Shown here: piece by piece, positions 19,574 through 24,158 of the stretch
How positions within the stretch are numbered: the first letter of the stretch is position 1
How the letters are laid out: every line of letters begins with the position of its first letter
From: Abyssogena phaseoliformis symbiont OG214
GTDB taxonomy: Bacteria; Pseudomonadota; Gammaproteobacteria; PS1; Pseudothioglobaceae
DNA length: 40,000 nt
Reading direction: 5' to 3'
Assembly (NCBI RefSeq): GCF_016592595.1
Contig: NZ_AP012977.1
Coordinates: 1,239,912 to 1,279,911 of the forward strand
The notes under the pieces: model-generated
The model's input: the letters and a program-made list of their open reading frames with translations, nothing else
The model's database searches: none
What the model was told of the DNA's origin: nothing
Position numbers and translations under genes: made by a program

Positions 19574-20551
19574 CTACAGCCTATCCAACGGCGACACCAC
19601 CTCTTGTCCGCCTTGGCGTAATACATGCGTATAAATCATCGTTGTTTGTATATCGCTATGCCCTAATAATGCCTGAATGGTGCGAATATCCGTACCTGTT
19701 TGCAATAAATGCGTGGCAAATGAATGCCTAAATGTGTGCGCTGATACTTTTTTATCAATACTTCTACATTTTTTAACCGCCACTTTAATGGCTTTGTTCA
19801 CCGCTGATTGGTCAATATGATGTCTTCTCTCAACACCACTTCTTGGATCAGTTGCAATATTTCTACTAGCAAATACATATTGCCAGCCAAACTCCTTATT
19901 AGCATTCGGATATTTTTTAGCCAAAGCATTCGGTAAATAAACACCGCCATAACCCTCTTTTAGATCCATCAAGTGCCTTTCTTTTCTTTGCAACAAACAG
20001 GCTTTTAATAACGGGATTAATTTATTAGCAAGTGGCGTCACCCTATCCTTTTTACCCTTGCCATCCCGAATAGTTATTTGACAATATTCAAAATCAATAT
20101 CCTGAACCCTCAAGCGCACCAACTCAGAAATTCGCAAACCACCGCCATATAGTAACTGCACCATTAAAATATTTGTGCCACTAAGTTTCGACAACACTTT
20201 TTTTACCTCTTCGATACTTAACACTGCAGGAATGCGTGGTTGTTTCTTGCTACGTACCGCCTGCACATTTTCGAGTGGTTTGCTTAGCACCTTACTGTAG
20301 AGAAAAACCAACGAATTTAACGCCTGATTTTGAGTGCTTGCTGCCACATTTTGCTTTACCGATAAATCCGTTAAAAAATGCTCAACCTTATGTTCAGAAT
20401 TCTCAAACAGTTCCTGTTTGTCCCTCATTTGTGAAAACTTAATAAATCGCTTAACCCAATCGCAATATGTATTTTCTGTTTTATAAGCATAATGCATCCG
20501 CCGCATCAGCTCTCGCATTTTCTGAATGACGAGTTTATTTTCTATTATCAT
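19574..20551 (-). CDS. intI: Integron integrase (IntI family tyrosine recombinase), apparently intact
   Basis: 325 aa. N-terminal [17 protein letters not shown] and [14 protein letters not shown]. Catalytic R ([13 protein letters not shown]), [12 protein letters not shown] and IYTHV. The IntI-specific insertion is present: [41 protein letters not shown]. C-terminal [12 protein letters not shown]. Confidence 0.9.
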   Translation of the reverse strand: [325 protein letters not shown]

Positions 20552-20732
20552 GATAATTAGATTAAATTATGTAATTAATTTTTTTACTTAAATAGCACAT
20601 ATTAAGTAAAAATTTATTTTAGACCAAGAAAGTGGCAAGAATACAACATTTTTTACATAGTATTATTTTTAATAGCGTGTATAAAGGAATATGTCCTTAT
20701 ACTAAATAGTTATGCATTTTCCGTTGTTAGGA
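20552..20732 (+). other. attI region (candidate crossover core GTTAGGA at 20726-20732)
   Basis: Very AT-rich 180-bp spacer between the intI start and the first cassette-like ORF frame. That frame opens directly after the TAG embedded in GTTAGG. A CCCCAA...TTGGGG inverted repeat follows at 20737-20762. The exact site is not provable by eye. Confidence 0.3.
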
Positions 20733-20844
20733 TACACCCCAAAATTCTCAAAAAACTTGGGGGGATATATGGGTCAAAATTAGCAATGGTGAGAATTATA
20801 TTTATCGAATTGCTTTAGAAGCAAGACCATCCATTGGTTTCACA

Positions 20845-21081
20845 ATGAAATCAATGGAAATTGATTACGACTCACATTTAGAATTAAGGCAAAGTGTAGA
20901 GTTCCAGCTAAAATGTGAAAATGGTCTTTATTCGAGTGCATTAAGAGTTCAAAAAGCTGGGTTTTTCGGAAAATTTTTAGCCCATTGGAAGCGCCCTGAT
21001 CCAGATTACAGAGTACCAATGCAATTAGGAATTGTTGGTTTCTTACTTGGTCTTATTCTTGGAATGATTGGTTATGCATAA
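20845..21081 (+). CDS. Cassette ORF: hypothetical 78-aa protein with C-terminal TM anchor
   Basis: ORF ends ...MQLGIVGFLLGLILGMIGYA and its TAA (21079-21081) lies inside the attC inverse core. The frame is open upstream to 20731 without a start codon, so the gene may itself be 5'-truncated. Confidence 0.45.
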   Translation: MKSMEIDYDSHLELRQSVEFQLKCENGLYSSALRVQKAGFFGKFLAHWKRPDPDYRVPMQLGIVGFLLGLILGMIGYA

Positions 21082-21132
21082 CAAATCATTCCAGCCGACC
21101 GCTAACGCGTCGGCTGAATTCAAGCGTTGGCC
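21076..21132 (+). repeat. attC site 1 (best preserved)
   Basis: GCATAAC-AAATCATTC-CAGCCGAC-CGCTAACGC-GTCGGCTG-AATTCAAGC-GTTGGCC. Inverse core RYYYAAC-like and core GTTRRRY-like. The 8-bp perfect inner arms extend to ATT/AAT if one C is left extrahelical. The end sequences resemble the classical aadA 59-be (TAACAATTC...CAAGCCGAC...CTCAAGCGTTAG). Confidence 0.8.
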
Positions 21133-21765
21133 ATTATTGATGATTTAGGTGCAATTGTCATCATAGCTATTTTAATTATGTTGAATTTTTTCGGTGTGTC
21201 GAAAAAAAAGCAGCCTACTTTATTGTTGGTACAATATTATGGATAGGTGTTTTTAAAATCAGGCGTTCACGCTACGTTAGCAGGTGTTGCGTTAGCGTTT
21301 ACAATTCCACTCAATGCAAGGGATGAAAATAAACAACCATTTTCTCCTCTTAAGGAGATAGAACATAGCCTTCATTCTTGGGTTGCTTTTTTTATTCTCC
21401 CGTTCTTTGCTTTTGTAAATACAGGGGTAAATATTACAGAAATATCAATTAGTCAAATGTCTGGAGGCGTGCCACTTGGCATTATGCCAGGTCTTTTTTT
21501 GGGTAAACAACTTGGTGTATTTGGTTTTAGTTTTTTAGCCATCAAATTAAAGTTAGCAAAACTGCCTAAGGGTAGCAACTGGATACAACCATATGGTGTG
21601 TCTGTATTAACTGGCATCGGATTTACTATGAGTTTATTTATAGTTTCTTTGGTATTTGAAGATGATAGTCTTTTTCAATACACGGATAAATTGGCAATAC
21701 TTATTGGTTCATTCGTATCTGGTATAGTTGGGTATCTGATTCTTAAAACAGGAAAAACCACATAA
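21128..21765 (+). pseudogene. nhaA: Na+/H+ antiporter NhaA, 5'-truncated at the attC core, with an internal deletion and frameshifts
   Basis: TTG GCC ATT ATT GAT GAT TTA GGT encodes LAIIDDLG (the NhaA Asp-Asp motif) and starts within the GTTGGCC core. About 20 codons are missing relative to E. coli NhaA after AIVIIA. Frameshifts occur at the A8 run 21202-21209 and near 21255. The C-terminal 170 aa (KSGVHATLAGV...GIGFTMSLF...) are intact to TAA 21763-21765. Confidence 0.8.
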
Positions 21766-21804
21766 CAAAGCATTAAACCACGCCTTACACACCCAAGGTT
21801 AAAG
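21760..21804 (+). repeat. Short attC-like element after the nhaA remnant
   Basis: ACATAAC overlaps the stop codon (TAACAAAG, like the other attC left ends) and the element ends with GTTAAAG. There is no convincing inner palindrome, so it is either degenerate or coincidental. Confidence 0.3.
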
Positions 21805-21856
21805 AATTAAAAATTCCTAACCCCTACCCTCCACCTCACATCTACCATTGTATCTG

Positions 21857-21875
21857 TATAATTCTTGCCAAGAAT
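21857..21875 (+). promoter_or_regulatory. TATAAT box overlapping a 15-bp palindrome upstream of the MNT-HEPN remnant
   Basis: TATAAT at 21857-21862 and ATTCTTG-C-CAAGAAT at 21861-21875, about 45 nt upstream of ATG 21917. This architecture is typical of autoregulated TA promoters. Confidence 0.3.
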
Positions 21876-23098: not shown

Positions 23099-23369
23099 AT
23101 GCCAACTATATCCATGTTTTATGGTGTTCTTATCAGAATATTTTTTCATGATACGGGCAGACACCGCTCGCCACATATTCATGCAGAATATCAAGGAGAA
23201 GTTGGCGTTTATGCGATAAAAGACGGTCAATTGCTTTCAGGTAATTTACCCCCTAAAAAACATAAATTAGTCGTTACTTGGATTGAAATCATTATGATGA
23301 TTTAAAGGCAGATTGGGGCTTGCTGTTAATGGTAAAAAGCCCTTTCCTATTAGAGGACTTGACCAATGA
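23099..23369 (+). pseudogene. DUF4160-family protein with two 1-nt deletions near the 3' end
   Basis: MPTISMFYGVLIRIFFHDTGRHRSPHIHAEYQGE... is a typical DUF4160 N-terminus. After WIEI the expected H.DDLKADWGL and AVNGKKPFPIRGLDQ segments lie in the two other frames (shifts at about 23290 and 23320). The last frame ends at a TGA overlapping the next ATG. Confidence 0.65.
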
Positions 23370-23596
23370 TAATCACTCAAATAGAACCACAAGTAAACCA
23401 CAAGTTACGTATATCTACAAAAGATGGTCGGACAGGTTTATTTGATGTGTTACCCTATTTGAACTCTGAAGCATTTGTAGATCTACAAGATAATGATAAT
23501 TTTATAAAAATCAGAAATGGAAAATATTTTATTGAGTGGGATTGTGGGTCGGACTTATCAGCAGACACAATCGAATCTGAGTGGAAAGTCATCTAA
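23366..23596 (+). CDS. DUF2442-family protein (usual partner of DUF4160)
   Basis: 76 aa, intact (MIITQIEPQVNHKLRISTKDGRTGLFDVLPYL...IEWDCGSDLSADTI). Its TAA sits in the attC inverse core ATCTAAC. Confidence 0.65.
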   Translation: MIITQIEPQVNHKLRISTKDGRTGLFDVLPYLNSEAFVDLQDNDNFIKIRNGKYFIEWDCGSDLSADTIESEWKVI

Positions 23597-23647
23597 CAAA
23601 TCATACCAACCAACTGCTTACGCATCGACTGAATTCAAGCATTAAAT
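23591..23647 (+). repeat. attC site 2 (decayed copy of attC 1)
   Basis: ATCTAAC-AAATCATAC-CAACCAAC-TGCTTACGC-ATCGACTG-AATTCAAGC-ATTAAAT. Colinear with attC 1. Of about 8 differences before the core, 6 are G/C to A/T, and they break the inner stem and the crossover G. Confidence 0.7.
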
Positions 23648-23869
23648 GCAAAAGCTGCACTAGATGCTGTTGGAGCCAAACCACATGATGTCGTCATTGC
23701 GCGTATTTACATGATTAACCTTACACCTAAAAGATTAGAAGAAGTTATACCTTCGTTTTTAGCCACTTTTTAAGGCGCTCAACCTTGTATCACTGGTGTT
23801 AGTATGGAGGTACTTGCTGCACCTGATTTACAAGTTGAGATGGAATTGGTTGTAAAACTTCCAGATTAA
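23642..23869 (+). pseudogene. RidA/YjgF-family protein, C-terminal fragment starting at the attC core, with an in-frame TAA
   Basis: LNAKAALDAVGAKPHDVVIARIYMINL...FLATF-TAA-GAQPCITGVSMEVLAAPDLQVEMELVV aligns with the C-terminal half of E. coli RidA (SLDNVKAIVEAAG...DIVKTTVFV...P.RS.VEVA.LP....IEIE). The N-terminal half is absent. Confidence 0.6.
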
Positions 23870-23914
23870 TCCTCATTAGGTAATTTACTAGTTCGTCGAA
23901 TTCAAGCGTTATAA
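23867..23914 (+). repeat. attC site 3 (right half conserved, left half diverged)
   Basis: ...GTTCGTCGAATTCAAGCGTTATAA shares the GAATTCAAGCGTT right end and a GTTATAA core. The left half (TAATCCTCATTAGGTAATTTAC) no longer pairs with it. Confidence 0.55.
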
Positions 23915-23939
23915 TTTTTAAGAAAAGAAAAATCGTAAA

Positions 23940-24104
23940 ATGAAGCAAATCAACATTCAATATTACAAAACAAAGATTGGCGAATTAATTCTTGACTCTT
24001 ATGATGACAAACTTTGTATTCTTAATTTTAAATACCGAGGAATGAGAACAGCTGTTGATAATAGAATTAAAAACGGATTAAAGGCTAAATTTAGAGAAGA
24101 ATAA
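23940..24104 (+). pseudogene. Methylated-DNA--protein-cysteine methyltransferase (Ogt/MGMT-like), N-terminal fragment only
   Basis: MKQINIQYYKTKIGELILDSYDDKLCILNFKYRGMRTAVDNRIKNGL resembles the N-terminal domain of cassette-borne MGMT-like proteins. The ORF stops after 54 aa and the catalytic PCHR domain is absent. The stop is embedded in TAACAATTCAAG, which looks like a collapsed attC. Confidence 0.5.
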
Positions 24105-24158
24105 CAATTCAAGATGGGTTATTTCCAAATAATATGCAAATGGATTGTATTTTTTACT

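Follow-up and report, generated by a model that had tools for sequence, protein, structure and literature searches.

A chromosomal integron with a conserved integrase gene and an eroded cassette array in the gill symbiont of Abyssogena phaseoliformis

The DNA considered here is a window of 40,000 nucleotides (contig NZ_AP012977.1, positions 1,239,912 to 1,279,911, assembly GCF_016592595.1) from the gill symbiont (OG214) of the deep-sea clam Abyssogena phaseoliformis, a clade II vesicomyid clam symbiont with a genome of 1,542,177 bp. Symbionts of this kind are transmitted maternally and are undergoing reductive genome evolution (PMC5310779; bioRxiv 10.1101/2020.02.01.930370). NCBI taxonomy puts the genus Candidatus Ruthturnera (corrected name of Candidatus (Ca.) Ruthia) among the SUP05 relatives. 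The window carries an integron, that is, an integrase gene (intI) on the minus strand and, on its far side from the tauE-like neighbor, an array of about six cassette units in 3.4 kb, whose open reading frames (ORFs) all run on the plus strand, opposite to intI. Coordinates throughout are positions in the window. An initial inspection of the letters and their ORFs, hereafter the sequence-only reading, had described an intact integrase beside an almost wholly decayed array, and had left two alternatives, either that integrase function is still selected or that the decay is very recent.

The integrase gene occupies 19574-20551 (minus strand) and encodes 325 residues, with no stop codon or frameshift along the whole frame. 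Against the NCBIfam model for integron integrases, TIGR02249, the protein scores 429 bits, above the curated cutoff of 265, whereas the XerC model (TIGR02224) returns only 149 bits (cutoff 335) and the XerD model (TIGR02225) 153 bits (cutoff 330), which leaves the protein outside both Xer families. The IntI1 equivalog NF011946 gives 300 bits against a cutoff of 435, so it is not of the IntI1 type either. An end-to-end alignment with VchIntIA of V. cholerae (PDB 2a3v, E 3e-84) spans the IntI-specific insertion between patches II and III, KYPNA..FGWQYVF..RRHH. The catalytic residues are all present, and R139, K164, H271, R274, H297 and Y306 are invariant in 12 of the 12 clade members aligned. 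In the GTDB species set the nearest orthologue belongs to Ca. Ruthturnera sp. Tsphm01, with 94% amino acid identity, and in database annotation these clade genes already bear the name integron integrase. The sequence-only reading had called this frame an unbroken integron integrase that keeps the IntI-only insertion, a description that the model scores and the VchIntIA alignment bear out.

Housekeeping genes lie on both sides. Next to intI is a tauE-like gene (18812-19552, minus strand), and this neighborhood is kept in Tsphm01, Ruthturnera CSMAG_640, the symbiont of the sponge Iophon and Asou_11_S2; synteny with tauE-rnf is likewise conserved across species. At the other end the array meets glmM (24159-25484, minus strand), on the side of glmM-folP-ftsH; its product matches GlmM of the A. 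phaseoliformis symbiont OG214 without a difference. Nothing transposase-like appears in the ORF list for 17000-27000, of which family searches covered some ORFs only. As the IntI1 model fails and transposase-like ORFs were not seen, the locus does not fall among the mobile integrons (classes 1-5). It is a sedentary chromosomal integron, as had been proposed from the housekeeping flanks, and the host, a clade II vesicomyid symbiont, bears out the suggestion of a reducing genome. Between tauE and rnfA, the interval 18316-18763 (minus strand) holds an 85-aa ORF and a 74-aa fragment of a PemK/MazF-like toxin (NCBIfam profile positions 5-51 of 116), which together look like a further decaying toxin-antitoxin pair outside the integron; Tsphm01 is ~187 bp longer at this spot (L002 12051-12238).

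The recombination platform can be followed from the intergenic region between intI and the first cassette (20552-20715, plus strand). Here the window, Tsphm01, the Iophon symbiont and MAG3 share sequence up to ...CTTATACT(A)AATAG|TT and are unrelated beyond it. This break in homology among four genomes places the predicted attI crossover at G20709|T20710 (AAATAG|TTATGC), that is, an attI beside intI with insertion at G|TT. In the window the first cassette starts TTATGC, the exact complement of its own R'' box, GCATAAC, and in Tsphm01 the cassette starts TTATAC, the exact complement of its own attC R'' box, GTATAAC, as expected if both cassettes were once circular. These first cassettes are different genes, being the remnant of a gene of ~142 codons (orf142) in the window and a PEMT-like methyltransferase in Tsphm01. 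Since the two lineages parted, one or more events of integrase type must therefore have taken place at attI.

The attC sites belong to a family characteristic of the clade. The arrays of Tsphm01, CSMAG_640 and the Iophon sponge symbiont contain close copies of a 50-nt core that lies at 21079-21128 in the window. Seven copies from relatives fit the R''/R' and L''/L' structure with 91.7% of cells paired and three compensatory pairs, against 24-31% in slid controls, and this covariation supports the attC helices. A covariance model (CM R1) was built from these seven copies, with none taken from the window, and scanned over the 40 kb with filters off. It finds attC1 at 21076-21134 (plus strand; 75.7 bits, E 1.7e-17), an intact member of the 59-nt family with its crossover at G21126|T21127. 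The bottom strand of attC1 folds into a hairpin of -12.3 kcal/mol (z = -2.1), and an extrahelical G on that strand, in the L box, corresponds to the bulged C17 of the top strand. The second match is attC2 at 23591-23649 (plus strand; 46.7 bits, E 9.5e-10), a decayed copy with a former crossover at 23641|23642. It has seven broken pairs, its core has gone from GTT to ATT and it no longer folds into a stem (z = 0.07). Identity to attC1 is 84%, and five of the eight substitutions are G>A. Taken with the covariation in the helices and the bulged base in the L box, the two matches bear out attC sites of the kind with an R''-L''...L'-R' palindrome, an AAC/GTT core and extrahelical bases. In the window, 21060-21093 also contains an 18-nt near-perfect palindrome between the 3' end of orf78, the residual ORF of the first cassette (TGGAATGATTGGTTATGC), and the 5' half of attC1 (GCATAACAAATCATTCCA), which would allow an alternative hairpin competing with the attC1 stem.

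Further sites survive as relics. Of a third attC (23867-23916, plus strand) only the 3' half, CGTCGAATTCAAGCG|TT, is left, with its crossover at G23908|T23909; the 13 nt at 23898-23910 (GAATTCAAGCGTT) match attC1 exactly, and the region 23867-23914 goes undetected by the CM in the 40-kb scan. Thus, of the three attC sites named in the sequence-only reading, the first two are recovered by the model and the third persists as half a site. The array ends in a stemless relic at 24099-24126 (plus strand), ATAACAATTCAAG...GTTATT, whose CM score (11.9 bits, E 1.9) is not significant alone; the same sequence occurs at the same spot beside glmM in Ca. Ruthia endofausta and in the symbiont of Isorropodon fossajaponicum. 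A possible decayed attC 3' of the nhaA remnant (21760-21806, plus strand) is uncertain. Its first 17 nt (CATAACAAAGCATT) fit the family, the CM scan does not detect it, and an unrelated nhaA on a metagenome contig (L085) also ends in ACATAACAAG. For the nucleotidyltransferase-HEPN (MNT-HEPN) cassette, hairpin folding found no recognizable attC and no recognizable boundary with the DhiT-DUF2442 unit that follows it. All remaining CM matches in the 40 kb have E > 0.2 and are not significant. Two candidates were set aside, namely 21943-21989 (E 3.2), which carries an exact TAACAAAGCA at 21946 and lies inside the N-terminal coding sequence of MNT-HEPN (HLPNNKANPL), and 12141-12177 on the minus strand (E 0.27), inside a 256-aa ORF. 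Rfam at gathering thresholds reports no attC family in the window, only a transfer-messenger RNA (tmRNA) and transfer RNAs (tRNAs). With attI and attC1 intact, the array is not wholly dead as a recombination substrate, and together with intI they make up a complete platform, with a G|TT crossover at attI and one structurally intact attC.

The cassette genes themselves are a graveyard in which DUF2442 alone is intact. Cassette 1 (20710-21126, plus strand) is a remnant of a gene from a ~142-aa family, of which orf78 (20845-21081) matches only the C-terminal half. The 135 nt upstream of orf78 also code for this protein, but in a different frame, the shift falling in a G6 run at 20758-20763. Once the frame is restored, the translation matches residues 18-142 of the homologue P0242 from nt 20714, so orf142 lacks its start codon and first 17 codons. 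Next follows an nhaA pseudogene (21127-21765, plus strand), which begins mid-gene (LAIIDD) at the attC1 crossover. Its match to Pfam Na_H_antiport_1 covers profile positions 153-168 from 21127 and 213-374 (of 374) at 21247-21765, and comparison with the full-length P0122 and P0132 reveals an internal deletion of ~20 codons and two homopolymer frameshifts. We considered and rejected a naturally short NhaA family of 233-288 aa, because such entries derive from ordinary full-length nhaA genes cut short by gene calling or by the end of a contig. For instance, the 233-aa 'NhaA' calls on metagenome contigs L084 and L085, which start MALAIIDD, reflect contig ends or an upstream in-frame stop.

After nhaA comes MNT-HEPN (21917-22812, plus strand), a single fused nucleotidyltransferase and HEPN gene of full length, with at least four frameshifts and a TAA at 22287-22289 that replaces a Gln of the 301-aa Rhizobium homologue WP_237371867; Pfam Polbeta and HEPN match its fragments only. 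Some 150 nt on its 5' side (21790-21940) are nearly free of G on the plus strand (ACCCCTACCCTCCACCTCAC...). A repeat of tyrosine codons in HEPN at ~22517-22531 reads YYYYY in the window and YYYYYYY in GCA_019400405.1 (L088 8916-9233), and the Logan SRR12077200 contigs break at window positions 21850 and 22786, which may reflect population heterogeneity or a repeat. The spacer that follows (22813-23098, plus strand), which includes a 37-aa ORF at 22976-23089, yielded zero family matches, significant hairpins or CM matches, and no cassette boundary can be recognized in it. Beyond it lies a DUF4160/DhiT-like toxin pseudogene (23099-23369, plus strand) with two 1-nt deletions near 23290 and 23316, the repair of which raises its score from 63.7 to 78 bits and the profile coverage from 1-63 to 1-82 of 84. 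DUF2442 (23366-23596, plus strand) encodes 76 aa and covers positions 1-70 of 72 in Pfam PF10387 (E 8.7e-9). The ridA-like remnant (23642-23869, plus strand) starts at about residue 51 at the attC2 crossover, and matches Pfam Ribonuc_L-PSP over 51-119 of 121. Its frame is interrupted at 23771 by a TAA, for which the R. endofausta orthologue reads GAA. At the end stands an ogt/MGMT-like remnant (23940-24104, plus strand) of the N-terminal 54 aa, corresponding to residues 1-54 of a 177-aa MGMT (tblastn against plasmids, E 1e-4); a PDB search with this ORF returned zero matches. Its catalytic domain was removed by a 195-nt deletion flanked by ACAA microhomology, which looks like ordinary slippage. 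With nhaA, MNT-HEPN, DUF4160, ridA and ogt all disrupted, the array is as decayed as the sequence-only reading had it; the suggestion that orf78 as well as DUF2442 might be intact fails for orf78, a frameshifted C-terminal fragment.

Related symbionts show how old this decay may be. In R. endofausta (1.19 Mb) the order is ftsH-folP-glmM, an ogt remnant that keeps the PCHR catalytic motif, a ridA remnant and, past a deletion, fragments of DUF934 and cysH, and rnfA; tauE and attC are absent, and intI is lost outright. The I. fossajaponicum symbiont (1.45 Mb) has glmM, a nearly full ogt with the PCHR domain kept, the ridA region, and IS3 and IS256-like elements. In Tsphm01, an IS fragment and a phage-type integrase come after intI and one cassette, and the locus is split, with glmM ~145 kb away beside an IS3 element. 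Asou_11_S2 has intI, one attC (67.6 bits) and then IS genes. Of the genomes compared, the window preserves the most complete arrangement, glmM-array-intI-tauE-rnf. The window, R. endofausta and the I. fossajaponicum symbiont have the distal cassettes in common, along with part of the damage to them, and the shared ridA and ogt remnants imply that both genes stood at the array end in a common ancestor of several clade II symbionts. Decay of the array is therefore long-standing, much of it older than the split from other vesicomyid symbionts, which contradicts the alternative that it is very recent. Erosion has gone on independently in different lineages, and relatives with greater reduction or rearrangement have lost the locus or had it split. 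As to cassette content, a comparison of which had been suggested, the first cassette differs from that of Tsphm01, and the two available strains carry the same array.

The surroundings of the locus also vary among these relatives. Two of them (L007 17361-20763 and L003 9418-10499) possess a second cluster of strong attC sites (75-87 bits) several kb past intI on the rnf side, and the window has no significant counterpart. Such clusters are CALIN-like arrays without an adjacent integrase, and the cassettes in L007 hold ORFs of 280, 526 and 240 aa. Asou_11_S2 (Ca. Ruthia sp. Asou_11_S2) carries a BrnT/BrnA-like toxin-antitoxin pair between intI and tauE (L092 6480-7044), while the interval from tauE to rnfA holds cysH in intact form and a gene resembling asnC. 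Of these neighbors the window and R. endofausta have fragments or nothing, so erosion extends to the whole neighborhood.

A feature that the sequence-only reading did not mention concerns where three of the cassette genes begin. Each of orf142, nhaA and ridA has lost its 5' part, and the break lies 0-4 nt from a G|TT crossover. Homology to NhaA runs from the first codon after G21126| (TTG GCC ATT ATT GAT GAT, or LAIIDD), homology to RidA from TTA AAT directly after 23641 (the profile match opens at the second codon), and homology to orf142 from 4 nt past G20709|. The gene-side junctions TTGGCC (nhaA), TTAAAT (ridA) and TTATGC (orf142) are good to perfect TTRRRY cores. For ridA, R. endofausta offers a version without the rearrangement. 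Downstream of TTAAAT the two ridA sequences are ~85-90% identical by eye; upstream of it R. endofausta continues as ridA coding sequence (...AAT ATT GTT TCG|TTA AAT), whereas the window has the attC2 relic (...GAATTCAAGCA|TTAAAT). From this comparison the ancestral ridA held G|TTAAAT, a perfect GTTRRRY, and the break falls exactly at the canonical cleavage position. Such a break is the signature of an integrase joining an attC or attI to a secondary site, an activity reported for IntI1, and it points to deletions made in this way.

The integrase gene itself shows the opposite of decay. An ungapped nucleotide alignment with the Tsphm01 orthologue contains 69 differences, distributed 15/10/44 over codon positions 1/2/3, and 19 amino acid replacements. 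Counted by hand, ~23 changes are non-synonymous and ~46 synonymous. With site numbers assumed at ~750 non-synonymous and ~225 synonymous, also a hand approximation, dN is ~0.03, dS ~0.24 and dN/dS ~0.13, a value averaged over the window and Tsphm01 lineages. Identity to Tsphm01 is 94% for IntI, 94% for RnfA, 93% for TauE and 80% for RnfC. Polarization with ten outgroups assigns ~9 of the 19 replacements to the window lineage and ~7 to Tsphm01, so there is no obvious acceleration of IntI in the window lineage. The cassette remnants carry ~11 frameshift or nonsense lesions per ~2.8 kb; at that density intI should have ~3.8, and it has none (Poisson P ~0.02, a rough estimate). Because of the third-position bias, the low dN/dS, the conservation comparable to that of Rnf and TauE and the absence of lesions, intI is judged to be under purifying selection. 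The dN/dS check that had been called for and the identity shared with RnfA and TauE favor the alternative that integrase function is still selected.

Taken together, these observations are best explained by an old, vertically inherited chromosomal integron of the Ruthia/SUP05 clade, with an integrase gene under selection, an eroded array and truncations made at secondary sites, a reading to which we give a probability of about 0.7. By the established mechanism, an integron integrase works on attC as a folded bottom strand, with strand exchange at G|TT. Here IntI would also have acted on look-alike TTRRRY sites within genes, which would leave orf142 (at attI), nhaA (at attC1) and ridA (at attC2) beginning mid-gene; the DNA between the attC or attI and the look-alike site would be deleted. 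In an integrase-dependent variant, a truncated gene and its attC would be excised as a circle and re-inserted at attI, and this would account for the perfectly matched R boxes of cassette 1. Ordinary reductive lesions would have ruined the rest, by homopolymer frameshifts, nonsense mutations, microhomology deletions and the G>A decay of unused attC stems.

Several points weigh against this reading. The nhaA junction lies inside GC-TT microhomology shared with the attC, so that illegitimate recombination independent of IntI is possible there, and the cassettes may have lost their 5' ends before they were captured. The dN/dS value, a hand estimate, spans both lineages and does not isolate the terminal branch, and among the replacements that arose on the window's side are some at N-terminal residues of IntI that hardly vary otherwise, such as P7L and Q11K. 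A LexA box (CTGT-N8-ACAG, at most one mismatch) was not found in 20552-20720, which leaves the locus outside the SOS-regulated class, and a consensus scan gave no convincing sigma-70 or Pc promoter for intI or the cassettes. The two available strains carry the same array, and direct signs of present activity were not found.

The first two of these points lead to the strongest rival, in which the 5' truncations arose by RecA-independent deletion at microhomology, or by capture of genes already truncated, and owe nothing to integrase acting at secondary sites. Deletion of this type has been proposed for these symbionts (PMC5310779), and the 195-nt loss in ogt, flanked by ACAA, is an example from the same locus. 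Nevertheless, three independent junctions lie 0-4 nt from the G|TT of attI, attC1 and attC2, and random end points would rarely meet one position of a 59-nt site three times. The gene sides TTATGC, TTGGCC and TTAAAT also fit TTRRRY well or perfectly, and at the unrearranged R. endofausta ridA the homology ends exactly at G|TTAAAT. We consider this explanation unlikely.

Somewhat less probable again is a fully inert integron, whose intI drifts as neutrally as the cassettes and is intact only for want of time. An array that is almost all dead would suit this explanation, as would the loss of intI from relatives with greater reduction, which makes it dispensable in the long term; the N-terminal replacements and the missing LexA box and promoter would suit it too. 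The substitution pattern argues the other way, with its third-position bias and low dN/dS, and so does an IntI as conserved as the Rnf subunits. Want of time is also hard to invoke when the distal cassettes have been decaying since before the R. endofausta split and intI carries none of the ~3.8 lesions expected at the cassette density. In addition, attC1 and attI are structurally perfect.

If intI is constrained without useful cargo, it might instead have been co-opted for work that has nothing to do with cassettes, such as that of a general site-specific recombinase standing in for a lost Xer or some other recombination function, and vesicomyid symbionts have indeed lost various recombination and repair genes (PMC5310779). 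We regard this as very improbable, in that the sequence gives no hint of a new target, the conserved attI and attC1 are canonical substrates, close and further-reduced symbionts live without intI and the protein scores far under the Xer cutoffs. Finally, that the pseudogenes are homopolymer sequencing or assembly artefacts, as the several frameshifts in runs (A8 in nhaA, G6 in orf142, G4 in DhiT) might suggest, is effectively refuted, since the same lesions recur in three assemblies (the window, GCA_019400405.1, which differs from it at 3 of 1849 nt of the locus, and Logan SRR12077200) and are therefore not sequencing errors, the flanking housekeeping genes are all intact, and read errors cannot make large truncations.

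An old, vertically inherited integron with a selected integrase has partial parallels among known systems. Like the V. cholerae superintegron (VchIntIA/IntI4, PDB 2a3v), the locus has an integrase of the same family, a chromosomal site between housekeeping genes, a homogeneous clade-specific attC family comparable to the VCRs, and cassettes of toxin-antitoxin type (here MNT-HEPN and DhiT/DUF2442). It differs in having about six units in 3.4 kb in place of more than 100 cassettes, with nearly all genes pseudogenized and one foldable attC, no LexA box found, and an intracellular clam symbiont in genome reduction as host. Like the Xanthomonas integrons, it is inherited vertically at one fixed place in the chromosome, has an array particular to its lineage and is partly degenerate. 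In Xanthomonas, however, the integrase is reportedly inactivated in most cases while the arrays persist (Gillings et al. 2005), and here the order is reversed, the cargo having decayed first with the integrase intact and constrained. An intI with few or no attC sites is said to be a recognized class ('In0', 'complete integron') in the IntegronFinder scheme of Cury et al. 2016. In those terms the window locus would be a complete integron with one or two attC sites, near In0, with the difference that the path to In0 or loss can be traced stepwise over five symbiont genomes. Recombination by IntI1 at secondary sites, reportedly described by Francia et al. 1993 and Recchia et al. 1994, is said to be mostly experimental and to concern class 1 integrons. 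The truncations resemble such events in that the left half of an attI or attC is joined to a G|TT-type site in unrelated DNA, with fused or truncated genes as the outcome; unlike them, they are fossils in a natural chromosomal array, with one unrearranged partner in a sister species.

Elsewhere in the window, Rfam places a tmRNA gene (185 bits) and three tRNA genes, at 32325-32671 and 659-1629, which have no relation to the integron. The interval 8001-9000 holds a local GC minimum, 0.26 against ~0.37 overall, beside a switch in the sign of GC skew at ~9 kb.

What we describe is an element of a known kind, new in its host setting: a complete integron heading to In0 or to loss. Most work on integrons has treated them as engines of adaptation in bacteria that live freely or cause disease, and a full-text literature search returned no paper linking them to Ruthia, SUP05, vesicomyid, Bathymodiolus or Thioglobus, nor any on the accessions. 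Stages of the process can be seen at the orthologous loci of four or more related symbionts, from platform with eroded array, through platform with one cassette and relics without integrase, to complete loss, so that the order and mechanisms of integron decay become directly observable, and the truncations would provide natural sequence-level examples of secondary-site deletion by an integrase, one of them with its partner site untouched. More tentatively, and with less confidence than doubt, the integrase may still be active in this maternally transmitted intracellular symbiont, its off-target recombination at GTTRRRY making a hitherto unrecognized contribution to genome reduction. If so, the integron would be dismantling its own cargo, 'cargo first, integrase last', that off-target process would have left a dated series in the genomes of the five vesicomyid symbionts, and the locus might serve as a gateway for gene import into a host-restricted bacterium. 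This raises the testable question of whether heritable marine symbionts still swap cassettes with their environment.

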